Shown piece by piece: positions 2,818 through 59,774 of a stretch of DNA of 64,000 nucleotides (its first letter is position 1; the number at the start of each line of letters is the position of its first letter). Below the pieces are notes generated by a model, which was not told the DNA's origin, did no database searches, and saw nothing but the letters and a program-made list of their open reading frames with translations. Position numbers and translations under genes: made by a program. The stretch covers positions 3,778 to 67,777 of the forward strand of contig JACFNP010000008.1 of NCBI GenBank assembly GCA_019454835.1, written 5' to 3'. Origin of the DNA: Rubellimicrobium sp. Lineage in GTDB: Bacteria; Pseudomonadota; Alphaproteobacteria; Rhodobacterales; Rhodobacteraceae.

Positions 2818-3246
<429 letters not shown>

Positions 3247-3782: not shown

Positions 3783-5321
3783 TCAGGCCGGACCCTGCCC
3801 CCCCGGCAACCGGATGCCACGCGCGTCGAAATAGCGCGCGATGGCCTGCGGGTCGCCCGATGGGTCGGCCAGCGCCACCCAGCCATCGGGCCGCAGCAGG
3901 TAGGTCGCATCACGCGCGATCCCCGCCGCCCCGTGTTCGGGCCGCCACGCCGGAACCTGAAGCGCCACGCCCTGCGCGCGGCACCAGTCCGCCAGCCCGT
4001 CGCCAGCGCTGCCGTGGACCCGCACCTGCCAGCCGACAGGCGCAGGCGGCGCGGGGCTTTCGCCCGCGTCCGGCGCCACCCATGGCAGCCGGTCGCCTCC
4101 GGCCACGGCGCCCGCCCGCCCGGCGCTCAGCGCGCTGTCGCGGTAGTCGAGCGCGATCTGCGACACCGTGCGAAACAGGAACCGGCGCAGCGCGCCTGAC
4201 CGCAGCGCGCGCGACAGCACCGCAGGCGCGAGCCGCGCGCGGACCACCCCCGCCGCCCGGCCCCGCGCCGTGACGATGCCGAAGATGCGGTCGGTCGTGG
4301 CCACCAGCCGCCGCGCAAAGCCGATCCGTTCGGCCTCGTAGCTGTCGAGCAGGTCGTCGCCCGCGCGGCCCGCGATGACCTCGGCCAGCTTCCACGCCAG
4401 GTTGATCGCATCGAGAATCCCGGTGTTCATGCCCTGCCCGCCCACCGGGCTGTGGATATGACCCGCATCGCCCAGCAGGAACGCCCGCCCCTTGCGGAAA
4501 TGCGCGGCGACGCGGTGGTGGACGCGGTAGGTCGAGAACCAGTTCACCCGCCCCACCGTCACCTGCATCTGCGCGACGACACGGGCGCCGGCATCCTCGA
4601 AACGCGGCGCGCGGCCCCCCGGCGGGCCGCCCGCGCCAATGGTGCCGACCAGGCGGACATGGCCGGGCGCGGCCAGCGGGAAGATTCCCAGGAAATCGGC
4701 CTCGTCGAGGTCGATATGCAGATCGCCGTCGATGGCCGGGCCGCGCGCCGCGATGTCGGCGACATAGTAGTGGCCTTCATAGGTGCTGCCGCCGAAGCCG
4801 ATGCCCAGCGCCTTGCGCACGGTCGATCCGGCGCCGTCGCAACCGGCGATGTAGCGCGCGGTGCAGGTTTCTCCGCTGCCGTCGCCATGGCGAAGGTCGG
4901 CGGTGATCCGGCTGCCGTCATCGGCAAGGCGCAGCAGTTCCGTGCCGCGCTCGACCTCGATGCCCGCATCGCGCAGCCGCGACTCGAGCAGGGCCTCGTG
5001 TTCGTCCTGGGGAAAGATGGTCACGAAAGGATAGGGCGTCAGCCCCGCGCCCAGCGCGCCGAAGTCGATATGCGCCGCCCGCCGCCCCCGCGCCCAGAGG
5101 TTCACCCCCTCGACCCGGTGCCCGCGCGCCACGACGGCATCGGCAAGATCGAGCTGGCGATAGAGTTCGAGCGTCCGCGCCTGGACCGCCAGCGCCCGCG
5201 ATCCCGTGCCCGCCACCGCATTGCGCTCGATGATCCGCACCCCGACCCCCTGCCGGTGCAGCCAGAGTGCCAGCACCAGCCCGGTCGGCCCCGCGCCGAC
5301 GATCAGGACATCCGCTTCCAT
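3783..5321 (-). CDS. FAD-dependent aromatic-ring monooxygenase (PheA/TfdB-like)
   Basis: 512 aa. N-terminal VGAGPTGL dinucleotide fold and GDAGHIHSPVGGQGMNTG motif. Confidence 0.85.
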   Translation of the reverse strand: MEADVLIVGAGPTGLVLALWLHRQGVGVRIIERNAVAGTGSRALAVQARTLELYRQLDLADAVVARGHRVEGVNLWARGRRAAHIDFGALGAGLTPYPFVTIFPQDEHEALLESRLRDAGIEVERGTELLRLADDGSRITADLRHGDGSGETCTARYIAGCDGAGSTVRKALGIGFGGSTYEGHYYVADIAARGPAIDGDLHIDLDEADFLGIFPLAAPGHVRLVGTIGAGGPPGGRAPRFEDAGARVVAQMQVTVGRVNWFSTYRVHHRVAAHFRKGRAFLLGDAGHIHSPVGGQGMNTGILDAINLAWKLAEVIAGRAGDDLLDSYEAERIGFARRLVATTDRIFGIVTARGRAAGVVRARLAPAVLSRALRSGALRRFLFRTVSQIALDYRDSALSAGRAGAVAGGDRLPWVAPDAGESPAPPAPVGWQVRVHGSAGDGLADWCRAQGVALQVPAWRPEHGAAGIARDATYLLRPDGWVALADPSGDPQAIARYFDARGIRLPGGQGPA

Positions 5322-5649
5322 CCGTGCCTCCGTCAGGGCAACGGTCCCGCCGGATCGCCTGCGGGATCGGACTCACCGCGACAGGCTGCGCCCCGCGCGG
5401 GCAACGGGCAAGCCCCTTGGGGGCAGGCGGCATGGCTATCGCATTTGACCTGCGCAGCAACCCGCGTGGTGCAACGGTGGGGCAGCATGACCGGCGCCCG
5501 CACCGAGGGGGGCGCGGATGCGCCCGCCACAGAAACGTTCTTGGGGGGGCGGGGCGGGCGCCGGTCGTGCTGCGCACGCCCGAAGGGGGAAATTCTCTGG
5601 CCGCGCGCCGCAGGTTCGGCATATGCGATTGCCCAGCCTTCTCCCCACC

Positions 5650-5737
5650 GTCATTGCGAGGCGCAAGCCGAAGCAACCCCGACCGCTTGCGCGATGTCCT
5701 CGGGGTTGCTTCGTCGGCTGCGCCTCCTCGCAATGAC
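5650..5737 (+). repeat. element copy 4 (A loop, F)
   Basis: GTCATTGCGAGGCGCAAGCCGAAGCAACCCCGACCGCT...CCTCCTCGCAATGAC. Confidence 0.9.
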
Positions 5738-5813
5738 GGAACATGGCGTGCGCGCTTGCTCCGACAAGCGCGTTCACACGCTTGCGCCCTCCCGCAGAAT
5801 ACCTTACCGATTT

Positions 5814-5827
5814 AGTCACGATTGACT
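5814..5827. promoter_or_regulatory. candidate operator dyad AGTCA-N4-TGACT upstream of the iron cluster
   Basis: AGTCACGATTGACT, 31 nt upstream of the imelysin-like ATG. Confidence 0.25.
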
Positions 5828-5857
5828 CACCCCCGCTGCAGCCCCGAGGAACCGCCG

Positions 5858-6919
5858 ATGCGCGCCTTGCCGACCCTGTTGATTCCGGCCCTGCTGGCCG
5901 CCCCCGCCGCCACGTTCGCCGATGCCCCGGCGCCGACCGCCGCCGAGACCGAGGGCCTTGCGTCGGTGCGGGCGTTCACGCTTGAACACAGCACCGCGCT
6001 GGCAACCGAAGCCGCCGCCCTGCGCGACAGGGTTGCGGCCTATGCCGGGATCATCGCGGCCCATGACGGCGACTATCAATCCGCCTGGGACGCCGACGGC
6101 GCCACGCTGGCGCAGGCGATCCGCGACATCCGCGCCAACTGGCTGGCCACCCACAACGAATACGAGACCATCGAGGGCATCGTCGCGGGCCTGCCGCGCA
6201 CGGCGGATTACGACCTGATCCTCGACGCGGGCAATCCCGGCACCGAGGACGACGATGTCGCCGACTACGACCTGACCCTGCCCGACGGCACCGAACTGCA
6301 CCAGCCCGGCAACCTGTTCCACACCCTCAGCGAGCCGGTCCTCTGGGGGACGAACCCCGATGCGGTGCGCCTTGCGGTCGATCTGGACGGCGACGGCGCC
6401 ATCGGCGCGGGCGAGATGCTGTTCGACCCGAACCTCGCGCTCGGCGCCGCCGAGGGGTTGGCGTTCTGGACCGCCGACCTGCAGGCGCAGGTCGAATCGT
6501 GGGAGCCGACCCGCGACGACGCCTTCACGGCGGTCGTCACCATGACGCCGACCATCGGCGACTACTTCGGCGAATGGAAGGATTCGCAATACCTGGGCGG
6601 GGTCGGCGAATCCTTCGTGGCGCAAAGCCGCCTCGTCGATGTCGCGGGCATCATGAACGGCTGCCAGCTCATGTATGAAAGCGCGATCTCGCCGGTTCTG
6701 GCCGAAGCGGGCGACAGCGGTCTCGACGCGGTGATCCGCAGCTCGTTCGGGCAGATGCTCGATCTGGTCTCGGACACCCACGCGCGCGAACAGGCGGGCG
6801 AGAGCTTTTCCGCCGAGGAAGCCGACGCGCTGGCCGCCGAAAGCCAGGACATCGCCGACCGCATCGTGGCGCAGGTGCTGCAGGCTGCGGCGCGCTATGA
6901 TGTGACGATCGAGGACTGA
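5858..6919 (+). CDS. putative periplasmic imelysin-like (M75/EfeM-like) iron-system protein
   Basis: Signal peptide MRALPTLLIPALLAAPAATFA, acidic mature protein, possible H-x-x-E type motif (THNEYE). The call rests mostly on context next to the FTR1 cluster. Confidence 0.45.
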   Translation: MRALPTLLIPALLAAPAATFADAPAPTAAETEGLASVRAFTLEHSTALATEAAALRDRVAAYAGIIAAHDGDYQSAWDADGATLAQAIRDIRANWLATHNEYETIEGIVAGLPRTADYDLILDAGNPGTEDDDVADYDLTLPDGTELHQPGNLFHTLSEPVLWGTNPDAVRLAVDLDGDGAIGAGEMLFDPNLALGAAEGLAFWTADLQAQVESWEPTRDDAFTAVVTMTPTIGDYFGEWKDSQYLGGVGESFVAQSRLVDVAGIMNGCQLMYESAISPVLAEAGDSGLDAVIRSSFGQMLDLVSDTHAREQAGESFSAEEADALAAESQDIADRIVAQVLQAAARYDVTIED

Positions 6920-6974
6920 GCGTCAGGCGTCGCGGGGGCCGCCGCTCGGGGTGATCGGGTGCGCGGCATGTTCC

Positions 6975-7060
6975 GTCATTGCGAGGAGGCAAAGCCGACG
7001 AAGCAACCCCGATGTCGTGTGTAAGCAGTCGGGGTTGCTTCGGCTTCGCCTCGCAATGAC
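6975..7060 (-). repeat. element copy 5 (A loop, R)
   Basis: Full termini; loop CGATGTCGTGTGTAAGCAGTCG. Confidence 0.9.
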
Positions 7061-7074
7061 GGAGGGGAGATGTC

Positions 7075-7164
7075 GTCATTGCGAGGAGCCGCAGGCGACG
7101 CGGCAATCCATGGGCCGGGCGCGGCGCCCGGCATGGGTTGCTTCGGCTTCACCTCGCGGGTGAC
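7075..7164 (-). repeat. element copy 6 (B loop, R-type arms)
   Basis: The A loop is replaced by CAATCCATGGGCCGGGCGCGGCGCCCGGCATGGGTTG. Right terminus variant CTCGCGGGTGAC. Confidence 0.9.
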
Positions 7165-7260
7165 GGAATATGCCCGATCGCCCCGCGCCACGCTTGCCAC
7201 ACTTGAGCGCATCAGTCAGGAAATGTAAGCCCGCCCGCAACCCGCCCGGTCGCGGGTCGT

Positions 7261-7782
7261 ATGTCCGGTGAAGCGATGGATGTGCCGTCCCGAACCATCC
7301 CGGCGCCCGCCCGCGCCGCCGCGCCGCCGCAGCGGCCGCGCGGCGGGACGCTGTTTTCGGGGCTGCTGACCGCCGCCTTCGCCGGGCTGTTCGTCTCGGG
7401 CCTGTTCCTGTGGCTCTGGCCGGGGGCGGAACCGGTGATCCTTGCGCATGTCATTGCCGGTCTCGCGGCCAGCGTCGCGCTGGTGCCGTGGCTGTGGCGC
7501 CATGTGCCGCGCGCGATCTGCCATGCGCAGCGCCCCGGCTTTGCCGCCGGAAGCTGGGCGCTGCTGGCGGTCTGGGTGCTGCTGCTGTTGTCGGGCGTGG
7601 CGATGGCGCTGCCGATGCTGGTCTGGCTGGCCGGGCCGGTCTGGTTCCCGGCCCGCGAGGTAACCGAGGCGCTGAGCCTGGTGCATTTCTGGGCCTCATG
7701 GGTGGCGATGGCCGGGCTGCTCCTGCATCTGGCCCTGCGCCACTGGCGCATCCCGGCCCGGTCCACGGGGGCGCAGGCGTGA
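7261..7782 (+). CDS. small integral membrane protein with conserved His in TM helices (DUF4405/cytochrome-b-like)
   Basis: 173 aa with about 4 hydrophobic helices. Its stop overlaps the GTG start of the next gene (GTGA). Confidence 0.5.
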   Translation: MSGEAMDVPSRTIPAPARAAAPPQRPRGGTLFSGLLTAAFAGLFVSGLFLWLWPGAEPVILAHVIAGLAASVALVPWLWRHVPRAICHAQRPGFAAGSWALLAVWVLLLLSGVAMALPMLVWLAGPVWFPAREVTEALSLVHFWASWVAMAGLLLHLALRHWRIPARSTGAQA

Positions 7783-9332
7783 AGCTGAAATCGCAGTTGC
7801 GCTTTCACCTGCGCTGGCTGGCACTGGCGGCGGCGGGCGTGGCGCTGGGGCTGGGGATCGGCGCGCTGGTGACGCCGGTGCCCGCGCCGGTCGGCACGGC
7901 CTTCGACGCCGTGCCCTTCTACCGGCTGCCCTTCGGCCCCGATGACGCGGGCGCCCCGCGCCCCTTCTGGCCCTCGCGGATGCAGGCGGCCAGCGCAGGC
8001 TTTGCCGACGGCGCGGCGCTGCCGTCGTCGGCGACCTGCGCCGCCTGCCACCGCCGCGAATTCGACGAATGGGCCGGGTCGCTGCACGCGGTGGCGGGTA
8101 ATGAACGGGTCTACGAGGCCACCGAGGATGCCAATGCCGAGGTCGGTCGCAACGGTGCCGAGCAGGTGCGCTTCTGCGAGGGCTGTCATTCGCCGGGCAC
8201 CCTGCTGACCGGCCGCGCGAACCGCTTTGCCTCGGTCATGCCGCACGAGGCCGAACTGGAAGGGGTAAGCTGCATCTCCTGTCACACCGCCATCCATGCC
8301 GACCCCGAAACGGGCAACGGCGCGCTCACCCTCGCCTTCGATCGCGCGGAAATCGAGGCGCGCGGGCCGCAGGGCGCCGCGCTGCTGGCCGACCCGCGCG
8401 CGCATCTGGCGGCCTTCGGCGCCCCCGATACCACCGCGCTGCTGAAGACCGGCGATTTCTGCGGCGCCTGCCACAACGAGACGCTTGATTCGTCGATGTC
8501 GCTGGTCCCCGATCCGGGGGTCGCGGTGCAGGCGACCCATGCCGAATGGCGCGAAAGCTGGTATGCCGACAACGGCATCACCTGCCAGACCTGCCACATG
8601 GCCCCAGACCCCGCCGCGCAGGTCATGCGCATCCGCGACGGCGACCTGCGCGCGCCCGCCACGGTCTCGCACCGCTTCATCGGCAGCAACTGGCTGCTGA
8701 CCGACACCGCGCTGGGCGACAGCCTGATGATCCTGCGCGGCGGCTTCCTGCCGGGCGTCGATGCGGCGCTGGGCAATATGACCGCCGGGGCGCAGCTTGA
8801 GCAGACCCGCGCCTTCCTGCGCACCGCCGCCGGGCTGGAGCTGCGCGAAAGTCGGCTGGATGCGGCGGGCCTGCATCTGCACATCGCGGTGCAGAACCTC
8901 GGCGCCGGGCACAACCTGCCGACCGGGGTGGGCGATCAGAAATACATGGAACTCGAGGTGGTGCTGCGCGATGCGGCGGGCCGCGAAATCTTCCGCTCGG
9001 GTGGCGACGAACAGGGGCCCGAAGGCAGCGCGGCGGTGCGCTGGATGGAGGAATTCGTCGATTCGCGCGGTCGGGTGATCCCCGATCACATCACCTTCCG
9101 CACCGCCGCTGTGCGCTGGACCCGCCACGGCATCCCGCCGCGCGGCGAGGAGGTCGTCCCCTACGACATCGCCCTGCCCGATGACACCGCCGGGCCGTTC
9201 ACGCTGGAGGTGCGGCTGCTCTACCGGCTGGCGCGGCCCGAGCTGATCCTGTCGAACCTGCACATGCGCGTCGATGTGCCGTTCTTCGCGCTGGCCGAAC
9301 TGACCGCCACCATTGCGGGTGACGGCGCATGA
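7779..9332 (+). CDS. periplasmic pentaheme c-type cytochrome
   Basis: Five CxxCH motifs (CAACH at 8037-8051, then CEGCH, CISCH, CGACH, CQTCH). N-terminal TM/signal segment LALAAAGVALGLGIGALV. GTG start inferred from overlap with the upstream stop. Confidence 0.8.
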   Translation: MKLKSQLRFHLRWLALAAAGVALGLGIGALVTPVPAPVGTAFDAVPFYRLPFGPDDAGAPRPFWPSRMQAASAGFADGAALPSSATCAACHRREFDEWAGSLHAVAGNERVYEATEDANAEVGRNGAEQVRFCEGCHSPGTLLTGRANRFASVMPHEAELEGVSCISCHTAIHADPETGNGALTLAFDRAEIEARGPQGAALLADPRAHLAAFGAPDTTALLKTGDFCGACHNETLDSSMSLVPDPGVAVQATHAEWRESWYADNGITCQTCHMAPDPAAQVMRIRDGDLRAPATVSHRFIGSNWLLTDTALGDSLMILRGGFLPGVDAALGNMTAGAQLEQTRAFLRTAAGLELRESRLDAAGLHLHIAVQNLGAGHNLPTGVGDQKYMELEVVLRDAAGREIFRSGGDEQGPEGSAAVRWMEEFVDSRGRVIPDHITFRTAAVRWTRHGIPPRGEEVVPYDIALPDDTAGPFTLEVRLLYRLARPELILSNLHMRVDVPFFALAELTATIAGDGA

Positions 9333-11605
9333 GGCCGGTCCTGCGCCTGTTCGCGCTGCTCTTGTGGCTGCTGCCGCAGGCGCTGGCGGCGCAGGGCGCC
9401 CCCTGGGCCGAGGCCGAGGTGATCCGCAGCGAGGGCGCCCGGATCGAGCGCCTGATGCTGCGCCCGCCCACCGAGGCGCTGCGCGACGAGATCGCCGCCC
9501 GGCTTGCCGATGTCGGCGCCGCCTGGGATACCGCCCGCGCGGGCTATGGCGCGGGCGCCGCGACCGATGCCATCGACGCCGCGCTGGCCGCCTATGCGCA
9601 GGCCGTCCGCGCCGGTGCCGCGCCCGAGGCCGCGCGTGCCCGGCAACGGCTCTGGGCCGGGCTGATCGGGGCGGCGGGCGACCATGCGCTGGCCGCGCTG
9701 GCGGCGGGTGACGCCGATGCCGCCGGGTCCTGGCTGAATATCCGCGACTATGCGCGCAACTCGGGCGCGACCGGCGCCACCCGCGCCGTCGCGGCGCTGA
9801 AGGCGGGCACGATGACCCCCGAGACCGCCCGCGCCGAGGTCGAGGGCGAGCTTCTCACCATCGCCGCAGGCGCGTTGCGCGAGGCGGTGACGGCGGCGCG
9901 CGCCGATCTGGCGGCGGGCAACGCGGTGCTGCTGGCCGGTGATCTGGGCCGCGCCGAGGGGATGCTGGCGATCCTGTCCGACAATCTTGCCGCGCGGCTG
10001 GGGGCGCCCGCGCGCGATGCCTTGGCCGAGGCGCTTGCGCAGGTGCCGCAGACGGGCGCGGCGGCGCTCGATGCGCTGGACGAAGGCTTGCGCGGCTATG
10101 CGCCGGTCGCGCTCTCGCCCGAGGAAACCCTGCGCCGCGCCCGGCTCATGCGACGCTTCACGGCGCTGGTGCTGTTCGACTACCGCATCGGGGTGCGCGA
10201 CGGCGAGATCGCGATTCCGCTGGACTATCACGAGGCGATCACCTTCCGCACACGCGCCGCCATGCTGCTGCCCGAAGTGGCGCCGGGCATGGCCGACGCC
10301 GCAGGCGCCGCGCGGCTGCACGACATCTATGCGCAGATGGAGCCGATGATCGCCGACCGGGTCGATCCCGACCTGCTGCAACCTCTGGGCGACGAGGCGC
10401 TGGCGATCATCGACCGCAGCTTCGGCGCCGAGGTCGCGCAGGGCGGCTACGATCTGGCCGTGGCCTCGATCCCCGAGGTGCTGGACCGGCTTGCCGCCGC
10501 CGCAAGCGCGGGCGACCGCGAAGGCGCCGAGGCCGCGCGGCTCGAAGCCTACGCCTGGTTCGATCCCGACATCGAACAGCGCCTGATGCCCCGCGCACCC
10601 ACCCTTGCGCTGCGCCTTGAGGCCCTGTTCTGGGAAGGCAGCGCCAGCGCGCCCGGTCTGGCGCGGCTGATCGCCACGCAGGCCCCCGAGGCGCAGGTCG
10701 CGGGCGGCATCGCCGCGCTGACGGCGGCGCTCGATCAGGCCCGCGCGGTGATCGAGACGCCGCTTTCGCCGGTGACGGCGGCGCTGCAATCGGGCGGGAT
10801 CATCTTCCGCGAGGGGCTGGAGGCGGTGCTGATCCTTGCCGCTCTGGTCGCCGCCCTGCGCGCCGAGGGTGTCGCGCCGCGCCGCTACCGGCTGCCGCTG
10901 GCGGCGGGCGTGGCGGCGGCGCTGGTGTTCAGCGTCGCGCTCTGGGCGGCGGCGCGCTGGGTCATCACGGTCTCGACACTGGCGCGCGAGGCGCTGGAAG
11001 GCGGCACGGCGCTGCTGGCGGCCATCGTCCTGATCTGGCTGACGCTGGGGCTGACGGCCAGGGGCGGCCATGTCGCCACGCTGCGGCGCAGGGTCGCCGC
11101 CGGGGTGTCGGGCACGGGTCTGGGGGTGCTCGCCTTCTTCGTCGTGTTCCGCGAGGGATTCGAGACGATCCTGTTTTACGAGGCGATGCTGGTCGATGCC
11201 CCCCCGGCGGGCGTGCTGGCCGGGCTGACGGCGGGGATCGTCGCCGTCCTCTTCATCGGCCGCGCCGTGCTGCTCGCGGGCCGCAGGCTGCCGCTGCGGC
11301 TGCTGTTCCGGGTGACCGGGGCGTTGCTGGCCGTGCTGGCGGTGATGCTGACCGGCGCCGGGGTCCGGGGCCTGCAGACCGCCGCCCTGATCGGCGCGAC
11401 GCCGGTGGCGTGGTTCCCCGAAAGCTACACGCTGCAACTCTGGCTCGGCCTCTACCCGGTCGCCGAAACGCTGGCCGCGCAGGGGGCGGTCGTGGCATTG
11501 TTCCTTGTCGCCTGGCTGGTGCGGCGGCGCGCGGCGCGCAAGGTCGCGGTCGGCCGAGGGGCCGGGCGGCGGACAAGGGCAGGACAACCGGGGGAGGAGA
11601 CATGA
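9329..11605 (+). CDS. FTR1-family iron permease with ~460-aa N-terminal periplasmic helical domain (FetM-like architecture)
   Basis: Two RExxE motifs: REGLE at 10808-10822 and REGFE at 11150-11164. Signal peptide present. ATGA overlap with the cytochrome gene. Confidence 0.85.
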   Translation: MRPVLRLFALLLWLLPQALAAQGAPWAEAEVIRSEGARIERLMLRPPTEALRDEIAARLADVGAAWDTARAGYGAGAATDAIDAALAAYAQAVRAGAAPEAARARQRLWAGLIGAAGDHALAALAAGDADAAGSWLNIRDYARNSGATGATRAVAALKAGTMTPETARAEVEGELLTIAAGALREAVTAARADLAAGNAVLLAGDLGRAEGMLAILSDNLAARLGAPARDALAEALAQVPQTGAAALDALDEGLRGYAPVALSPEETLRRARLMRRFTALVLFDYRIGVRDGEIAIPLDYHEAITFRTRAAMLLPEVAPGMADAAGAARLHDIYAQMEPMIADRVDPDLLQPLGDEALAIIDRSFGAEVAQGGYDLAVASIPEVLDRLAAAASAGDREGAEAARLEAYAWFDPDIEQRLMPRAPTLALRLEALFWEGSASAPGLARLIATQAPEAQVAGGIAALTAALDQARAVIETPLSPVTAALQSGGIIFREGLEAVLILAALVAALRAEGVAPRRYRLPLAAGVAAALVFSVALWAAARWVITVSTLAREALEGGTALLAAIVLIWLTLGLTARGGHVATLRRRVAAGVSGTGLGVLAFFVVFREGFETILFYEAMLVDAPPAGVLAGLTAGIVAVLFIGRAVLLAGRRLPLRLLFRVTGALLAVLAVMLTGAGVRGLQTAALIGATPVAWFPESYTLQLWLGLYPVAETLAAQGAVVALFLVAWLVRRRAARKVAVGRGAGRRTRAGQPGEET

Positions 11606-12012
11606 CCACGGACGAGTCACCATCGGCGCGCATCGACGCCCGGCTGGCCGGTCTTGCAGACTGGCGCGGTGCGGCCCTGTCACGGATGCGCGACCTGATC
11701 CGCGAGGCCGATCCGGCGGTGGTCGAGACCGTCAAATGGGTGAAGCCCTCGAACCCCCATGGGGTGCCGGTCTGGGAACATGCCGGGATCATCTGCACCG
11801 GCGAGATCTACAAGGGCTACGTCAAGCTGACCTTCGCACGCGGCGCAGCGCTGGACGACCCGGCGGGGCTGTTCAACGCAGGCTTCGGCGGCGGCACCCG
11901 CCGGGCCATCGACATCCGCGAGGGCGAGACCCCCGACGCCGCCGCGTTCCGGGCGCTGGTGCAGGCAGCGGTCCGCCTGAACGAGGCGCGGCAGAAGCCC
12001 GCCCGGACCTGA
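11602..12012 (+). CDS. DUF1801 (YdhG-like) domain protein
   Basis: 136 aa, MTTDESPSARIDARL...VKWVKPSNPHGVPVW. ATGA overlap with the FTR1 stop. Confidence 0.55.
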   Translation: MTTDESPSARIDARLAGLADWRGAALSRMRDLIREADPAVVETVKWVKPSNPHGVPVWEHAGIICTGEIYKGYVKLTFARGAALDDPAGLFNAGFGGGTRRAIDIREGETPDAAAFRALVQAAVRLNEARQKPART

Positions 12013-12036
12013 CGACCCCCGCCCTGCAAGGCCCCC

Positions 12037-12123
12037 GTCATTGCGAGGAGGCGCAGCCGACGAAGCAACCCCGATGTCGTATGTGAGCGGTCGGGGTTGC
12101 TTCGGCTTGCGCCTCGCAATGAC
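12037..12123 (-). repeat. element copy 7 (A loop, R)
   Basis: Full termini; lies between the convergent DUF1801 and emrB genes. Confidence 0.9.
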
Positions 12124-12170
12124 GGGATTTGCTCGCGGGTGGCGGGGTTTGCTCGCGGGTGACGGGATTT
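12124..12170. repeat. tandem 20-bp units carrying solo variant termini
   Basis: GGGATTTGCTCGCGGGTGGC / GGGGTTTGCTCGCGGGTGAC / GGGATTT. Each unit contains the CTCGCGGGTGAC-type terminus. Confidence 0.7.
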
Positions 12171-12200: not shown

Positions 12201-13739
12201 TCAGTGTTCCGCCATCGCGCGCGGCGCCGGGGCATCCGTTGACGGGTTGCGCAGCAGCAGGACGATGGGGAACGCCACCAGCGTCAGCACCATCATCATC
12301 AGGAAGTTGTCGATATAGGCCAGCATCGCCGCCTGCTGCGACACCAGCCCGTCGGCCACGGCAGCCATCGCCGGGTCTCCGGACAGCAGCGCGGGGAACT
12401 GCATCGCAACCTGCGGCGAATCGAGGGGCAGCCTGCTTGCCAGTTCCGCGTGATTGACGCCCAGCATCCGGGTCAGCACCGTGGTGACCAGCGAAATCCC
12501 GATCCCCGACCCCATGTTGCGCACGAGGCTGAAGACCGAGGTGCCGTCGCCGCGCAGCGCGGGCGAGAGCGTCGCAAAGGCCAGCGTCGTCAGCGGCACG
12601 AAGACGAAACCCATGCCGAAGCCCTGCACGACACCCGACAGAATGACCAGCCGGTCGTCCATCCCGGTCTCGAAGCCGGTCATCATCCACAGCGAGACGC
12701 AGCTCAGCGACAGCCCGGCAAAGACCAGCAGGCGCGGCCCGAGCCGGTCGACGAGGCGGCCGACCACGACCATCGACAGCATGGTGCCGATGCCGCGCGG
12801 CGCCATCACGATGCCGGTGGTGATGACCGGATAGCCCATGAGGTTCTGCAACAGCGGTGGCAGCAGCGCGAGGCCCGAGAACAGCGTCAGGCCGATGACG
12901 AACATGAAGACGTTGCCCATGACGAAGTTGCGGTCGCGGAAGATGCGCAGGTCGATGAACGGCTCTCCGGCCGTCAGGGCGTGGATGACGAACACCCAGA
13001 AGCCGCTGATCGTGAGACCGAGATAGATCCAGATCTCGGGCGACTCGAACCAGTCCACTGCCTCGCCCCGGTCGAGCAGCAGTTGCAGCCCGCCCACCGC
13101 CAGCGCCAGCATGGCAAAGCCGAAGATGTCGAAGCGCCGGGCGCGGGTCATGCCGTGCGGCATGAAGAAGGCGATGCCGACCAGCGCCAGCCCGCCCACC
13201 GGCAGATTGATGAAGAAGACCCAGCGCCAGTCGAAGCTCTCGGTCAGCCAGCCGCCCAGCGTCGGCCCGATGATCGGCCCGACCATGATGCCCGCGCCGT
13301 AGATCGCCATGGCCTGGCCCAGCTTCTCGCGCGGGTTGATGTCCATGATGACCGATTGCGCCATCGGCGCGATGACCGCGCCGAAGATGCCCTGCATGAT
13401 GCGCCAGAGCACCATGTCGCCGATCCCCTGCGCAAGGCCGCACAGCATCGAACTGGCCACGAAACCGGCAATGGCGCCGATGAACACCCGCTTGCGGCCC
13501 ATGCGGTCGACGATCCAGCCCGACATCGGCGTCATGATCGCGGCAGCGACGATATACGAGGTCAGCACCCAGGTGATCTCGCCCTGGCTGGCGCCAAGGC
13601 TGGCCGCCATATGCGGCAGCGCCACGTTGGCGATGGTCGTATCAAGCACCTGCATGATGGTGGCGAGCATGATCGCCCCCGTCAGCCAGCCGCGATTGGC
13701 GACCTCGAGGGCCGGGCGCGAGGTCACCGGAGCGGCCAT
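12201..13739 (-). CDS. emrB: DHA2-family MFS multidrug efflux transporter (EmrB/QacA type)
   Basis: 512 aa, 14-TMS-type hydrophobic profile, immediately downstream of the HlyD-family gene. Confidence 0.85.
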   Translation of the reverse strand: MAAPVTSRPALEVANRGWLTGAIMLATIMQVLDTTIANVALPHMAASLGASQGEITWVLTSYIVAAAIMTPMSGWIVDRMGRKRVFIGAIAGFVASSMLCGLAQGIGDMVLWRIMQGIFGAVIAPMAQSVIMDINPREKLGQAMAIYGAGIMVGPIIGPTLGGWLTESFDWRWVFFINLPVGGLALVGIAFFMPHGMTRARRFDIFGFAMLALAVGGLQLLLDRGEAVDWFESPEIWIYLGLTISGFWVFVIHALTAGEPFIDLRIFRDRNFVMGNVFMFVIGLTLFSGLALLPPLLQNLMGYPVITTGIVMAPRGIGTMLSMVVVGRLVDRLGPRLLVFAGLSLSCVSLWMMTGFETGMDDRLVILSGVVQGFGMGFVFVPLTTLAFATLSPALRGDGTSVFSLVRNMGSGIGISLVTTVLTRMLGVNHAELASRLPLDSPQVAMQFPALLSGDPAMAAVADGLVSQQAAMLAYIDNFLMMMVLTLVAFPIVLLLRNPSTDAPAPRAMAEH

Positions 13740-13740
13740 C

Positions 13741-14907
13741 TCAGCGCAGCCGGTCCATCCGGCTGGCGCCCGTGTCGACCGAGACGGTCACGCTCATCCC
13801 GCCGCGCAGCGGCAGGTCGGGGTCGGGGGTGATGCCGATGCGCACCGGCAGGCGCTGAACGACCTTCACCCAGTTGCCGGTCGCGTTCTGCGCCGGGATG
13901 AGCGAGAACTGCGCCCCGGTGGCGCCCGAGAAACTTTCGACCCGCCCGGCAAGCGGATGGCCGGGATAGGCATCGACGCTGACCTCGACCGGCTGGCCGG
14001 TGCGCAGCCCGGCAAGCTGCGATTCCTTGAAATTGGCCTCGACCCAGGTGTCGCCGGTCTCGACAAGGCTGGCGACCGGCGATCCGGCGGCGACGAACTG
14101 GCCGATGTTCAGGTTGCCGGTCTGGGCCATCTGCCCGTCCGCCGGGGCGCGGACCGTCGCATGATCGAGATCGCGGACCGCCGCCGCCTCGGCGGCCAGC
14201 GCGGCGCGCACCGACGGCACGTCGTCCGTCGCCACATCGGGATCGCCGCCCAGCGCCGCAGCGGCCTGCACGACCTGCTGGCGGGCCAGCGCGACCTGGT
14301 TCTCGGCGGCGCGCAGCGTCAGCAGCGCCTCGTCGAGCGCGGCAGGCGTCGCCACGCCGCGCGCCTGCAGGCCCTGCTGGCGGTCATATTCGGACTGGCG
14401 GATTTCCAGCACGCTTTCGGCGGCGGCAAGCTGCGCCGTGGCGACGCCATGCGCGGCGCGCAACCCCTCGACGGCCAGACGTGCCTGATCGACCGCCGCC
14501 GAGGCGCGGTCGAGCGCGATCCGGTAGGGTTCGGGGTCCAGCTCGAACAGCGTGTCGCCCGCCGCGACCTGCCCGTTTTCGGTGACGGCGACGGCGACGA
14601 TCCGGCCCGAGATGTCGGCGGACAGCGGCACCAGCGGCTGGTGCACATAGGCGTTGTCGGTCGCCACATAGCGCCCGCCGGTCAGCCAGGCCCAGCCGCC
14701 GCCGCCCGCCAGCGCCAGCGGCAGCACGATCATCAGCAGCCGCGCCTTCCAGCTCCGGCGCCGCTTTGGCGCGGGCGGGGCAGCGTTCGCGGCTTCGGGC
14801 ACCGCTGCCGGTGCCTCGGCCACCACCGCCAGTTGTGCGGGGCCGGGTGCCGGATCGGGTGTCGGATCGTCAGCGCGCGCGGCGGCGCCGGATGCGGAGG
14901 GAGTCAT
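13741..14907 (-). CDS. emrA: HlyD-family membrane fusion protein (EmrA type)
   Basis: 388 aa with one N-terminal TM helix and a coiled-coil middle region. Sits between marR and emrB. Confidence 0.85.
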   Translation of the reverse strand: MTPSASGAAARADDPTPDPAPGPAQLAVVAEAPAAVPEAANAAPPAPKRRRSWKARLLMIVLPLALAGGGGWAWLTGGRYVATDNAYVHQPLVPLSADISGRIVAVAVTENGQVAAGDTLFELDPEPYRIALDRASAAVDQARLAVEGLRAAHGVATAQLAAAESVLEIRQSEYDRQQGLQARGVATPAALDEALLTLRAAENQVALARQQVVQAAAALGGDPDVATDDVPSVRAALAAEAAAVRDLDHATVRAPADGQMAQTGNLNIGQFVAAGSPVASLVETGDTWVEANFKESQLAGLRTGQPVEVSVDAYPGHPLAGRVESFSGATGAQFSLIPAQNATGNWVKVVQRLPVRIGITPDPDLPLRGGMSVTVSVDTGASRMDRLR

Positions 14908-15368
14908 CTGGTCAGGGTATCCGTCATGTCACCGGGACCGTCCGGCGTGGCGGCGGCGGTGAGGTTGTCGATGATTGTCTGCAACATGCGGTCAAGCGCC
15001 GCGATGTCGTCGTCGTCCAGCCCGGCAAGCGCCTGCGCATAGACCGACTCGACCACCGGGCGCATCCCTAGCGCCAGCGCACGCCCCTCGGGTAGCAGCC
15101 GCACCCGCTTGGCGCGGGCATCGTCGGGATCGTTTTCGCGCTGGACACAGCCCATCGCCTCGAGCCGGTCGATCTGGTCGCTGATCGTCATGGGGGCGAT
15201 CTCGAGGTGATCGGCCAGCGCCCGCTGCGTCGGCGCATCCTCGCGCAGCAGAACCCCGAGCGTGCGCCACTGGGTCAGCGTGAGTCGGCTGCCCTGCACG
15301 CGCCGCTCGAACTCGGCCTTCAGCAGGCGCGAGATGCGGTGGATGTGGATGCCGGTATCAGAGTGCAT
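14904..15368 (-). CDS. MarR-family transcriptional regulator
   Basis: 154 aa with a winged-HTH region (LTLTQWRTLGVLL...PTQRALADHLEIAPMTISDQIDRLE). Overlaps the emrA start. Confidence 0.85.
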   Translation of the reverse strand: MHSDTGIHIHRISRLLKAEFERRVQGSRLTLTQWRTLGVLLREDAPTQRALADHLEIAPMTISDQIDRLEAMGCVQRENDPDDARAKRVRLLPEGRALALGMRPVVESVYAQALAGLDDDDIAALDRMLQTIIDNLTAAATPDGPGDMTDTLTR

Positions 15369-25695: not shown

Positions 25696-25745
25696 CGGGG
25701 CAGCGACCGGGACAATCGGGCGAGCCGCAAAGCCCGTCATTTTCC

Positions 25746-25831
25746 GTCATTGCGAGGAGGCAAAGCCGACGAAGCAACCCCGATGTCATGTCTGAGCGGT
25801 CGGGGTTGCTTCGGCTTCGCCTCGCAATGAT
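25746..25831 (-). repeat. element copy 8 (A loop, R)
   Basis: Ends CTCGCAATGAT, 6 nt from the dppF-like stop. A partial extra terminus CGTCATT lies at 25735-25741. Confidence 0.9.
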
Positions 25832-25837
25832 GGCGGC

Positions 25838-31067: not shown

Positions 31068-31111
31068 CGCGCTATCCGGGGACTGTCAGGGGGAGCGGGC
31101 GGCATATTTTC

Positions 31112-31197
31112 GTCATTGCGAGGCGCAGCCGAAGCAACCTCGACCGCTCACACACAGCATCGGGGTTGCTTCGTCGGCTGCAGCTCCTCGCAATGAC
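31112..31197 (+). repeat. element copy 9 (A loop, F)
   Basis: Full termini; loop CGACCGCTCACACACAGCATCG. Confidence 0.9.
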
Positions 31198-31214
31198 GGT
31201 GCTCATATCCCTCC

Positions 31215-31304
31215 GTCATTGCGAGGAGCCGCAGGCGACGCGGCAATCCACAAGGCCGGGCGTTGCACCCGGCATGGGTTGCTTCGGCTTCGCCTCGCAA
31301 CGAC
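31215..31304 (-). repeat. element copy 10 (B loop, R-type arms)
   Basis: CAATCCACAAGGCCGGGCGTTGCACCCGGCATGGGTTG loop; right terminus CTCGCAACGAC. Confidence 0.9.
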
Positions 31305-31343
31305 GGGGTTCACACCGCCGCGCGATTTACCACGATACACGTC

Positions 31344-31575: not shown

Positions 31576-31724
31576 ATGCCGCGACTGGTCGTCCTGCACG
31601 GTGCAGAGGCAGACCTCGTCGAAATCGGCATCTACATCGCCCGCGACAACCCAACACGCGCATCGTCCTTCATCGACGAGATCGAGGCGCGGATGGCCGA
31701 AATCGCGCGCCGCCCGCACCCCCC
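31576..31724 (+). pseudogene. parE: ParE/RelE-family toxin, N-terminal ~50 codons only, truncated by repeat copy at 31725
   Basis: MPRLVVLHGAEADLVEIGIYIARDNPTRASSFIDEIEARMAEIARRPH then runs straight into GTCATTGCGAGG. Starts 1 nt after the parD stop. Confidence 0.5.
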
Positions 31725-31810
31725 GTCATTGCGAGGCGAAGCCGAAGCAACCCCGACCGCTCACACACGACATCGGGGTTGCGTCGTCGCCTGCGGCTCC
31801 TCGCAATGAC
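31725..31810 (+). repeat. element copy 11 (A loop, F), truncating parE
   Basis: Full termini directly abutting the parE reading frame. Confidence 0.9.
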
Positions 31811-31870
31811 GGGGGGTCCGGGGGGCAGTGCCTTGGCCCGCGCAGCCGCAGGTCGCCCGGTTGTCCCGGC

Positions 31871-34698: not shown

Positions 34699-34777
34699 GG
34701 CTGGGGTCCATCATGGTCACGGGGGCCTCATGCCGCCGACGCGCCCGCTCCGCAAGGCGCCGCCGCCCGCAGATTCC

Positions 34778-34797
34778 GTCATGGCGAGGCGCAAGCC
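34778..34797 (+). repeat. solo left-terminus fragment
   Basis: GTCATGGCGAGGCGCAAGCC with no matching right half. Confidence 0.6.
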
Positions 34798-34810
34798 ACC
34801 CCCAAACCCC

Positions 34811-34897
34811 GTCATTGCGAGCCGCAAGGCGAAGCAACCCCGACCGCTCACACACGACATCGGGGTTGCTTCGTCGGCTGCGCCTTCTCGCAATGAC
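34811..34897 (+). repeat. element copy 12 (A loop, F)
   Basis: Full termini. Confidence 0.9.
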
Positions 34898-34907
34898 TGG
34901 GGGATTC

Positions 34908-34995
34908 GTCATTGCGAACGAAGTGAAGCAATCCATGCCGGGCGCAGCGCCCGGCCCTGTGGATTGCCGCGTCGCCTTCGGCTCCTCGCAATGAC
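34908..34995 (+). repeat. element copy 13 (B loop, F-type arms)
   Basis: Its reverse complement aligns with copies 6 and 10. Confidence 0.9.
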
Positions 34996-35008
34996 GAGAT
35001 GAGCAACC

Positions 35009-35095
35009 GTCATTGCGAGCCGCAAGGCGAAGCAACCCCGACCGCTCACACACGACATCGGGGTTGCTTCGTCGGCTGCGCCTCCTCGCAATGAC
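35009..35095 (+). repeat. element copy 14 (A loop, F)
   Basis: Near-identical to copy 12. Confidence 0.9.
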
Positions 35096-35129
35096 GAAAT
35101 CCCGTCACACCGCCGCCCCGACCCGGCGT

Positions 35130-40913: not shown

Positions 40914-41054
40914 AGGGCGAACGGGTGAACCGCATGTTCCGTCATTGCGAGGCGAAGCCGAAGCAACCCCGACCGCTTGCGCACAACATCGGGGTTGCTT
41001 CGTCGGCTGCGCCGCCTCGCAATGACGGCATATGCCGCGCGCCCGGTTGCCCTG
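40914..41054 (+). mobile_element. full-length MITE-like form of the element (core + outer inverted arms) with target-site-duplication-like flanks
   Basis: Outer arms AGGGCGAACGGGTGAACCGCATGTTCC and GGCATATGCCGCGCGCCCGGTTGCCCTG form an imperfect inverted repeat (about 19/27 by hand). They are flanked flush by the exact 11-bp direct repeat ACCCGAAATGC at 40903-40913 and 41055-41065. Confidence 0.7.
40941..41026 (+). repeat. element copy 15 core (A loop, F)
   Basis: Full termini; sits inside the longer element 40914-41054. Confidence 0.9.
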
Positions 41055-49373: not shown

Positions 49374-49375
49374 TC

Positions 49376-49462
49376 GTCATTGCGAGCCGCAAGGCGAAGC
49401 AACCTCGACCGCTCACACATAACATCGAGGTTGCCGCGTCGCCTTCGGCTCCTCGCAATGAC
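49376..49462 (+). repeat. element copy 17 (A loop, F)
   Basis: 12-nt spacer GGGGGGTAATC-type before it. Confidence 0.9.
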
Positions 49463-49473
49463 GGGGAATAATC

Positions 49474-49559
49474 GTCATTGCGAGCCGCAGGCGAAGCAAC
49501 CCCGACCTCTCGCGCACAAGATCGAGGTTGCTTCGTCGGCTGCGCCTCCTCGCAATGAC
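49474..49559 (+). repeat. element copy 18 (A loop, F)
   Basis: 11-nt spacer GGGGAATAATC before it. Confidence 0.9.
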
Positions 49560-49649
49560 GACGCGCCTGCTCGCGCCGCCGAACGCCCTTGCGCCCGCAG
49601 GGGGGCTGGCCCATAGCTCGGGCGAATTTCCGCTTTTCCGGTCAGGCAG

Positions 49650-55583: not shown

Positions 55584-55700
55584 GCGCCCAGACTAGCGGT
55601 TCGCGCCGGGGCGCGGAAGGGGCTGTTCTGCCATTGTTCGCATCAGGGTCAAACTTCGTTAACCTGTGGTGCCGCGCGTCGTGCCGGGGTGAGCGGGTTC

Positions 55701-55787
55701 GTCATTGCGAGCCGCAAGGCGAAGCAACCCCGACCGCTCGCACGCGACATCGCGGTTTCTTCGTCGCCTGCGCCGCCTCGCAATGAA
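55701..55787 (+). repeat. element copy 19 (A loop, F, degenerate right terminus CAATGAA)
   Basis: Nested within a perfect 16-bp outer inverted repeat (55685-55700 / 55788-55803). Confidence 0.85.
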
Positions 55788-55890
55788 GAACCCGCTCACC
55801 CCGCGCATCGTGCAAGACCATTGCCCCCGGCGCCAATCGCCCTATCTTCGCTGCATCTGCACGATACCGTCTTGCCCGGAAAGGCACCCG

Positions 55891-59523: not shown

Positions 59524-59537
59524 AGCCCGCAAATTCC

Positions 59538-59623
59538 GTCATTGCGAGGCGCAAGCCGAAGCAACCCCGACCACTCACATACAACATCGGGGTTGCTTCG
59601 TCGGCTTCGCCTCCTCGCAATGA
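59538..59623 (+). repeat. element copy 22 (A loop, F)
   Basis: Full termini. Confidence 0.9.
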
Positions 59624-59634
59624 CGGCAGTTCCC

Positions 59635-59721
59635 GTCATTGCGAGGCGGAGCCGAAGCAACCTCGACCGCTCGCGCAAAGCCTTCGGGGTTGCCGCGTCG
59701 GCTTCGGCTCCTCGCAATGAC
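59635..59721 (+). repeat. element copy 23 (A-like loop, F, B-type right arm)
   Basis: Full termini. Confidence 0.9.
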
Positions 59722-59774
59722 GGGATATGCCGCGCGCCCCGCCACACCACCTTGCGCGACGCGGCGCAGGTGTT

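Follow-up and report, generated by a model that had tools for sequence, protein, structure and literature searches.

We find that Rubellimicrobium sp. carries a conserved four-gene module centred on an FTR1-family permease, in which a b-type-like membrane protein and a multihaem cytochrome replace a copper protein or peroxidase. The module lies in a stretch of 64,000 nucleotides (nt) with about 72% G+C, hereafter the window, on whose whole length all positions are counted. Its genes, all on the plus strand, encode an imelysin/EfeM-like (Peptidase_M75-only) secreted protein (5858-6919, 353 amino acids (aa)), assigned from synteny and the Pfam matches of its homologues; a His-rich membrane protein with four transmembrane (TM) helices that is a candidate dihaem cytochrome b (7261-7782, 173 aa); a membrane-anchored pentahaem cytochrome c (7779-9332, 517 aa); and an FTR1 permease (complete gene 9329-11605, 758 aa). 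We put at about 0.8 the probability that the window encodes an iron-uptake module with a cytochrome b/c chain where known FTR1 systems have a copper protein or peroxidase. The module is apparently a distinct, widely distributed and uncharacterised combination of known parts (FTR1/FetM, M75, c552-like, dihaem b). In databases these parts are named separately, as 'hypothetical', 'imelysin family', 'multiheme c-type cytochrome' and 'FTR1 family'.

Conservation of the module

An alignment of 16 cytochromes, used to scan a single genome for each species, yielded 195 confirmed relatives, the best 79 of which define the related loci studied here (labelled L001 onward). The open reading frames (ORFs) of these loci were searched with the window proteins by phmmer and jackhmmer. 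By this hidden Markov model search the imelysin-like protein, the small membrane protein, the cytochrome and a long FTR1 (N-terminal domain plus core) occur together in 51 of the 79 loci, and five further loci, cut by contig ends, are compatible with the same four-gene set. Five Bacillota loci have FTR1, cytochrome and small protein; in both of those tested, L067 and L077, the lipoprotein encoded directly 5' of FTR1 is a Peptidase_M75 protein according to Pfam. The order imelysin, small protein, cytochrome, FTR1 is kept in Alphaproteobacteria (including Paracoccus, Albidovulum, Hoeflea, Devosia, Rhizobiaceae, Dongia and Thalassospira), in Gammaproteobacteria (including Halomonas/Billgrantia, Pseudomonas and Sedimenticola) and in a Sulfurovum metagenome-assembled genome (MAG), and FTR1 is the usual last gene of the cluster. 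Anaerolineales have the order FTR1, imelysin, small protein, cytochrome. Start codons that would create a 4-nt overlap exist at 34 of 38 small-to-cytochrome and 36 of 37 cytochrome-to-FTR1 junctions (L001-L038), and the gap between the imelysin-like and small-protein genes, 341 bp in the window (6920-7260), is mostly 0-20 nt in the relatives. In one Pseudomonas genome the four genes stand alone between a CoA-transferase gene and thrC. The small-protein gene lies beside that of the cytochrome in nearly all loci, and a single ORF unites the two in a Thermaerobacter MAG (L052, 1407-3389) and a Sneathiellales MAG (L053, 480-2672), which supports the physical b-c complex that we infer.

The original prediction, made from the window alone, had proposed neighbourhood conservation of multihaem cytochrome and FTR1 as a check, and had regarded sporadic co-occurrence of the two as telling against it. 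The synteny spans several phyla, and co-occurrence with the complete four-gene set in 51 loci is not sporadic. The limits of the cluster do change. The imelysin-like gene, correctly recognised upstream, had been taken as a mere neighbour and turns out to be a core member across the related loci. Conversely, the DUF1801 gene (11602-12012, plus strand, 136 aa; Pfam DUF1801, 68 bits), which had been counted in, is indeed coupled to FTR1 here through an ATGA junction, but has a homologue in none of the 79 related loci; we reject it as a module member. Its 4-nt overlap with the FTR1 stop codon is confined to the window lineage.

Ferritin is encoded near the cluster in Sulfurovum and flavodoxin in one Bacillota locus. 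The latter, L067, has the flavodoxin gene upstream and genes for the haem-maturation proteins CcmE and CcmF after the cluster (Pfam); since CcmE/CcmF genes follow the cluster, c-type maturation of the cytochrome can be argued for in these monoderm Bacillota. More distant relatives of the cytochrome, 27-30% identical, occur without FTR1 or the b protein. As a side observation, the module stands beside cytochrome c maturation genes in L067 (3705-13998) and L072 (1901-4029 and 4905-9852), where CcmC-like and ABC-type ORFs were judged by eye.

The proteins of the module

The ORF coordinates and junction sequence bear out the stop/start overlaps GTGA, ATGA and ATGA that the original prediction had read between the small-protein, cytochrome, FTR1 and DUF1801 genes, the cytochrome starting with the GTG inside GTGA and the permease at an ATGA. 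The five CxxCH motifs of the 517-aa protein are likewise present (aa 87, 133, 165, 228 and 269), and Pfam, alignment and an AlphaFold2 model agree with the description of the 758-aa protein as an FTR1 permease with two RExxE motifs and a helical N-terminal domain.

The small protein (7261-7782) has four hydrophobic segments or TM helices and scores below threshold against both DUF4405 (21.6 versus 26.7 bits) and Ni_hydr_CYTB (19.7 versus 30.1 bits) in Pfam. Four histidines, H63, H81, H142 and H156, are shared by 92-100% of 73 homologues, and positive charge is found at the N-terminus, in the 82-94 loop and at the C-terminus. Judged from the hydrophobic segments and the positive-inside rule, H63 and H142 would lie near the periplasmic face and H81 and H156 near the cytoplasmic face. 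Two His pairs near opposite membrane faces are the classical layout for two membrane-spanning b haems. The protein is a candidate dihaem cytochrome b, which may bind haem b and act as a transmembrane electron wire.

The cytochrome (7779-9332) matches Cytochrome_C554 in Pfam, and its five CxxCH motifs are invariant in the alignment. Its AlphaFold2 model, with a mean predicted local distance difference test (pLDDT) value of 90.6, begins with a TM helix, continues with a helical cap for the five haems and ends in an Ig-like beta-sandwich. The sole strong Foldseek match is 5ZE8, the pentahaem cytochrome c552 of Thermochromatium tepidum (E 6e-15, TM score 0.67 over 479 columns); a sequence-profile search of the Protein Data Bank (PDB) also returns 5ZE8 (E 5e-14) together with MccSep. 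The protein has the c552/MccSep fold. Five extra histidines, H103, H209, H298, H378 and H437, are invariant or nearly so, and given that they suffice for bis-His ligation of all five haems, such ligation is possible; probably all five haems are bis-His. This pattern would fit a protein for electron transfer better than a haem enzyme that binds a substrate, and bis-His haems are usually low-potential. In MccSep a loop of the Ig-like domain, GHSIPDG-U325, reaches the catalytic haem. The window protein has an invariant C-terminal-domain loop, N-x-G-A-G-H-x-L-P-T-G, followed by Val (GAGHNLPTG-V), and homologues have Val, Ala or Pro at that residue. With no Sec or Cys after the loop we reject an MccSep-like catalytic function; against the ExtKL equivalog of NCBIfam the protein scores 32.9 with a cut-off of 250 bits.

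The permease (9329-11605) matches Pfam FTR1 (PF03239) over aa 490-688 at 72.7 bits, with a cut-off of 25.3. Its motifs REGLE (aa 494-498, nt 10808-10822) and REGFE (aa 608-612, nt 11150-11164) are invariant in 52 homologues and lie inside predicted helices 481-512 and 595-623. In the AlphaFold2 model (pLDDT 87.5) an all-helical domain of aa 26-476 precedes about seven TM helices. The N-terminal part of the gene (9329-10768) would thus encode a signal or anchor helix and an all-helical periplasmic domain of about 450 aa, and the remainder (10769-11605) the membrane core. By hhalign this core is FetM-like: the permease alignment matches plasmid FetM over aa 414-736 with 99.8% probability (E 2e-28, 36% identity), and tblastn matches E. 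coli plasmid FetM at aa 594-718 only. The score against the EfeU equivalog of NCBIfam is 74 bits, with a cut-off of 255. Two identities for the N-terminal domain were tried and rejected. It is not the N-domain of FetM, to which only about 65 juxtamembrane residues (414-480) align while aa 1-413 have no detectable similarity, and it is not a fused imelysin, given that hhalign of the permease and imelysin-like alignments reveals no relation. The domain belongs to no Pfam family, and a Foldseek search of the PDB gave nothing below E 0.05, returning generic helical bundles (vinculin, catenin). It is rare, with 277 cluster representatives among 1.84 billion proteins; full-length representatives are about 750-830 aa, a length that, by itself, is consistent with fusion to an FTR1 core.

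The imelysin-like protein of the window (5858-6919) has no Pfam match of its own. Its assignment as an imelysin follows from its close homologues, direct searches with the window protein having given none: nine of ten homologues pass the threshold of PF09375 (Peptidase_M75/imelysin) over nearly their full length, including P0113, which is 86% identical. Of 516 homologues found, 120 were listed and nearly all of these carry a precomputed PF09375 match. Several are named 'imelysin family' or 'EfeM/EfeO family lipoprotein' by NCBI. PDB sequences searched with a profile of 16 homologues yielded no imelysin, and hhalign of the alignment with E. coli EfeO gave a probability of 1.5%. The alignment has an invariant acidic cluster, E103-x-x-E106 ... 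D119 ... D123, and a motif F-H155-x-x-x-E159; at the position of GEEDRY it reads GE..AFVAQSR, a majority consensus placed by a weak hhalign alignment. For EfeM an 'ExxE-//-D-//-E' Site IV and an HxxE Site III have been described, and modelling predicts Site IV to favour Fe3+ (PMC9174327). The acidic cluster and FHxxxE resemble Site IV and Site III, with different spacing and a weak alignment to EfeO. On this sequence evidence an imelysin/EfeM-like protein is a core partner, and the module is not partner-less in the EfeUOB sense.

A separate feature of the same protein is a conserved EF-hand/dockerin-like loop, D-L-D/N-G-D-G-x-I-x-x-G-E, in mid-protein (aa 175-186, window 6380-6415). It may be a Ca2+ site, one that is not known from EfeM.

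The absence of a visible copper protein or peroxidase partner, which the original prediction had pointed out, is upheld by Pfam and NCBIfam scans of the cluster proteins. No P19/FetP domain occurs in any of the five proteins of the cluster, nor among the neighbouring genes in Pseudomonas, and no DyP peroxidase EfeB or cupredoxin domain in the cluster proteins or the syntenic loci. None of FtrA (P19), FtrB (cupredoxin-like) and FtrD (polyferredoxin) is found among the cluster proteins. The NCBIfam scan of these proteins added only sub-threshold EfeU and multihaem matches.

A sister clade with a cytoplasmic reductase

Loci whose cytochromes are 33-37% identical to that of the window, from gammaproteobacterial MAGs, Motiliproteus, Litorilituus and Nitrospina, form a sister clade. 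Small protein and cytochrome (about 545 aa) are followed by a GspG-like pseudopilin in L054 (6009-11177), L056 (7260-10987), L058, L060 (7312-11128), L065 (7237-10996) and L068 (7401-11183), and in all of these except L058 the pseudopilin is followed by a protein of about 345-357 aa. In L060 this protein has Fer2, FAD_binding_6 and NAD_binding_1 domains and no signal peptide, and its best matches are BenC/MmoC-class reductases (NADH-FAD-[2Fe-2S]). Reductases of this class hand electrons from NADH to a partner. Some sister loci (L061/L062, L054/L057) have a short FTR1 of about 400 aa and a DHOR dihaem protein; in L061 (3636-9605) no reductase ORF was found. In L056, L060, L065 and L068 neither FTR1 nor M75 is encoded within 8 kb. 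In L060, L065 and L068 the cluster is preceded by two sites, a strong Fur box (about -47 to -65) and, farther upstream, an FNR box (about -82 to -100). Such a stand-alone, iron-regulated set of reductase, dihaem b and pentahaem proteins would most simply be a periplasmic ferric reductase.

Predicted regulation by iron and oxygen

Regulatory sites were sought in the 300 bp 5' of the first cluster gene of 73 loci, with windows from the same loci providing the expectation. A strict FNR/ANR-type box (TTGAY-N4-RTCAA) is present in 13 loci, at -82 to -150, where 0.26 are expected (p ~1e-18), and a GC-matched control gives 13 against 0.49. Fur boxes, defined by at least 14 matches to the 19-position consensus, occur in 11 loci against 1.1 expected (p ~1e-8), or 10 against 1.6 with the GC-matched control. 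Both sites are found in Pseudomonas (L026, L030, L031) and Thalassospira (L033). Good B. subtilis-type Fur boxes were recognised by eye 5' of the M75 gene in the Bacillota loci L067, L072 and L077. Where detectable, that is in orthologues, these sites predict induction by iron limitation through Fur and by low oxygen through an Fnr/Anr-type regulator.

Other palindromes were observed. Rhizobiaceae loci L020-L028 share a FixK-like TTGCGC-N4-GCGCAA palindrome about 60-130 nt 5' of the imelysin gene, and a conserved GCA(A/G)(C/T)TGATA..CATTCGCAAC that is nearer to a Fur/Mur box than to the TGA-N9-TCA box of RirA. In the window, a perfect palindrome AGTCA-CGAT-TGACT (5814-5827), 31 nt 5' of the imelysin start, reads as a candidate operator, and a TGA-N9-TCA match (7204-7218) lies 56 nt 5' of the small-protein gene; both could be chance occurrences.

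Direction of electron flow

We propose a module at the cytoplasmic membrane made of an imelysin/EfeM-like iron binder, a dihaem b protein, a pentahaem c protein and a FetM-like FTR1. The b protein would carry electrons from quinol or from a cytoplasmic NAD(P)H reductase across the membrane to the pentahaem cytochrome, which would reduce Fe(III) presented as a chelate or bound to the imelysin protein or to the N-domain of the permease. The Fe(II) so formed would pass inward through the FTR1 channel with its REXXE lining. What the analysis shows is the gene set with its conservation and coupling, the assigned domains and folds, and the regulatory-box enrichment among orthologues; we infer from these that haem b is bound, that the proteins form a complex, which way the electrons flow and which iron species is transported. 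The full four-component statement, reductive direction included, we put at slightly under even odds.

Several points weigh against this proposal. The window clade encodes no reductase that could serve as electron donor to the b protein, and in the sister clade the reductase might rather act in the cytoplasm, on Fe(III) that has already been imported. The usual paradigm for FTR1 partners (Fet3, EfeB/EfeO, FtrB/FtrD) is oxidation of Fe(II). Ni_hydr_CYTB, the family to which the b protein is weakly similar, has characterised members that deliver periplasmic electrons to quinone. Anoxic conditions already provide Fe(II), and an oxidase-permease fits them at least as well. In addition, a search of the upstream regions in the window itself, including 5322-5857, for Fur and FNR boxes gave none; in Rhodobacteraceae, iron control operates by way of the Iron-Rhodo-box/IscR (PMC1698941, PMC4618611). 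A cluster without iron regulation would have told against the original prediction; Fur and FNR boxes in orthologues speak, by prediction, for such regulation, and the window itself offers none.

In the opposite direction, Fe(II) carried by the imelysin protein or by the N-domain would be oxidised by the pentahaem cytochrome, and the Fe(III) formed would go to the REXXE path of FTR1. The dihaem b protein would take the electron to the quinone pool, from which a terminal oxidase or the enzymes of denitrification would draw it. The module would then be a counterpart of EfeUOB or Fet3-Ftr1 that is independent of O2 and H2O2. An M75 partner and an FTR1 permease are indeed common to EfeUOB, the b protein resembles a family whose characterised members reduce quinone, and FNR-type boxes fit a ferroxidase that works without O2 or H2O2. 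Many hosts are, judged by their names, denitrifiers or microaerophiles. The acidic ExxE...D...D cluster of the imelysin protein resembles EfeM Site IV, modelled to favour Fe3+ (PMC9174327). We nonetheless consider this oxidative scheme, though credible, the less probable of the two, for reasons that at the same time make us lean to reduction.

The reductive direction is favoured because the sister clade pairs the same b and pentahaem proteins with a cytoplasmic NADH-oxidising reductase of the BenC class, in some loci without FTR1 and M75, an arrangement that makes little sense for an Fe(II) oxidase. We lean the same way because the haems, probably all bis-His, are likely low-potential, and because the carriers include menaquinone lineages: Bacillota, Anaerolineales and Sulfurovum use menaquinone, a poor acceptor for electrons from Fe(II). 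The FetM-like core is a further reason, given the precedent of FetM, which is reported to be an Fe2+ transporter whose partner has been proposed to reduce Fe3+ (PMC7285068). The electron path through a multihaem cytochrome and a b-type-like membrane protein that the original prediction had envisaged is therefore retained, whereas its direction, Fe(II) oxidation during import, is opposed by the sister clade, the FetM precedent and the bis-His ligands.

It is improbable that the module does not primarily serve iron nutrition and instead handles another metal, periplasmic redox chemistry or detoxification, or a respiratory Fe(III)/Fe(II) path with an FTR1-like partner. The FTR1/ILT family is also named for lead, of the structural relatives of the cytochrome MccSep acts in sulfur metabolism and c552 has no assigned role, the N-domain is without known function, and the distant cytochrome relatives lack FTR1 and the b protein. 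These features are opposed by the enrichment of Fur boxes 5' of the clusters, the invariant REXXE motifs, the iron-binding M75 partner, the FetM-like permease core and the ferritin or flavodoxin neighbours. Fortuitous adjacency of an electron-transfer gene pair to an iron permease operon, with no functional link, is effectively refuted by synteny, as the same four genes recur, their order either kept or permuted, among Alpha- and Gammaproteobacteria, Campylobacterota, Chloroflexota and Bacillota, with conserved 4-nt overlaps and with b and c genes fused in two loci.

Comparison with known systems

The FetM-type permease core is shared with FetMP(-Fls) of uropathogenic E. coli F11 and Salmonella plasmid pUO-StVR2 and with cFtr1-P19 of Campylobacter, and FetM and the window permease each bear a large N-terminal periplasmic domain. 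FetMP is Fur-regulated, and for its periplasmic partner a role in binding iron and altering the redox state of the metal has been suggested (PMC7285068). Unlike FetMP, the module has neither a P19/FetP copper protein nor Fls/FetA-F accessory genes, its partners being an M75 protein and two cytochromes. EfeUOB or EfeUOB-M of E. coli, B. subtilis and P. syringae likewise combines an FTR1-family permease, an M75 protein and a haem redox partner. The module, however, is without the DyP peroxidase EfeB and the cupredoxin domain; its haem partner is a pentahaem cytochrome c wired to a membrane cytochrome b, its permease is far below the EfeU equivalog cut-off, and the canonical HxxE and GEEDRY of the M75 protein are altered (FHxxxE; GE..AFVAQSR, by weak alignment).

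FtrABCD (Bordetella, Brucella, Burkholderia) and yeast Fet3-Ftr1 also couple an FTR1 permease to a redox partner, and FtrD is a membrane electron-transfer protein with a proposed role as electron route. In place of P19, cupredoxin, multicopper oxidase and polyferredoxin, the module has cytochromes b and c. The FtrABCD operon has been noted in the literature on Rhodobacteraceae iron regulation (PMC1698941). With T. tepidum c552 (5ZE8) and Geobacter MccSep/ExtKL the window cytochrome has in common the five-haem cap, the Ig-like sandwich and the G-H-x-x-P-x-G loop; it differs in its sequence (18% identity), its N-terminal membrane anchor, its iron-transport gene context and, compared with MccSep, in having Val after the loop where MccSep has U325.

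The siderophore reductase FoxB/PepSY_TM, MsrQ-Fre and eukaryotic Fre/NOX use a two-haem transmembrane wire to bring cytoplasmic or quinol electrons to a periplasmic acceptor. The sister clade resembles these dihaem reductases in that a separate NADH flavoprotein is encoded alongside. In contrast to them, the b protein belongs to a different, smaller (4-TM) family, relays through a pentahaem cytochrome and is linked to FTR1. Fusion of a c-type haem domain to FTR1 in a single protein is seen in plasmid matches H2 and H30 and in an Idiomarina gene table. In the module, by comparison with the cytochrome c-FTR1 fusion of database product names, which is uncharacterised as far as found, the cytochrome is separate, pentahaem and has its own b-type partner. 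The suspicion that the module is uncharacterised holds insofar as no paper describing this gene set was found in the literature, many subscription papers lying outside the search.

Genomic surroundings

The flanks of the cluster (2827-3246; 3783-5321 and 12201-15368, both on the minus strand) are, by their translations, apparently unrelated to iron; they include PII-like and FAD-monooxygenase-like genes and a trio of EmrB-like major facilitator superfamily, HlyD-like and MarR-like efflux genes. A palindromic element of about 90 bp, resembling repetitive extragenic palindromic (REP) sequences or miniature inverted-repeat transposable elements (MITE), has about 20 copies in the window, with arms CGTCATTGCGAGG ... 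CCTCGCAATGACG about 75 bp apart. The copies are intergenic, some of them tandem, and occupy all three gaps around the iron cluster, including that between the imelysin-like and small-protein genes, where they lie at 6974-7061 and from 7074 onward. They are found at 249-424, 5649-5738, 6974-7086, 12036-12124, 25745-25832, 31111-31305, 31724-31811, 34777-35096, 40940-41027, 49280-49560, 55700-55788 and 59537-59722, and give rise to spurious ORFs in the six-frame list.

Implications

Permeases of the FTR1 family are widespread, and how the bacterial ones couple transport to the redox chemistry of iron, and by which route the electrons travel, are questions that also concern EfeUOB, FetMP and FtrABCD. 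The module offers an explicit and compact electron path, a dihaem b protein and a pentahaem cytochrome c, in bacteria from Proteobacteria to Bacillota and Chloroflexota, together with a predicted joint control by iron and oxygen. We think it quite probable that it is an iron importer wired directly into electron transport, in the form of reductive assimilation or of the reverse, a ferroxidase. If the reductive form is true, the module would be a split-subunit bacterial analogue of eukaryotic reductive iron assimilation (a Fre-like haem wire plus Ftr1) in several phyla; if the reverse is true, it would be an O2- and H2O2-independent ferroxidase-permease that feeds the quinone pool and links anoxic iron uptake to respiration. 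The proposed module, if real, would add to the known FTR1 partners a fifth type, a cytochrome b/c chain that is copper- and peroxide-independent, would explain iron acquisition by denitrifiers and microaerophiles at low oxygen and would make functional names possible for four gene families. It would also provide a tractable system in which purified parts may reveal the direction of electron flow and whether FTR1 transport needs a coupled redox step.

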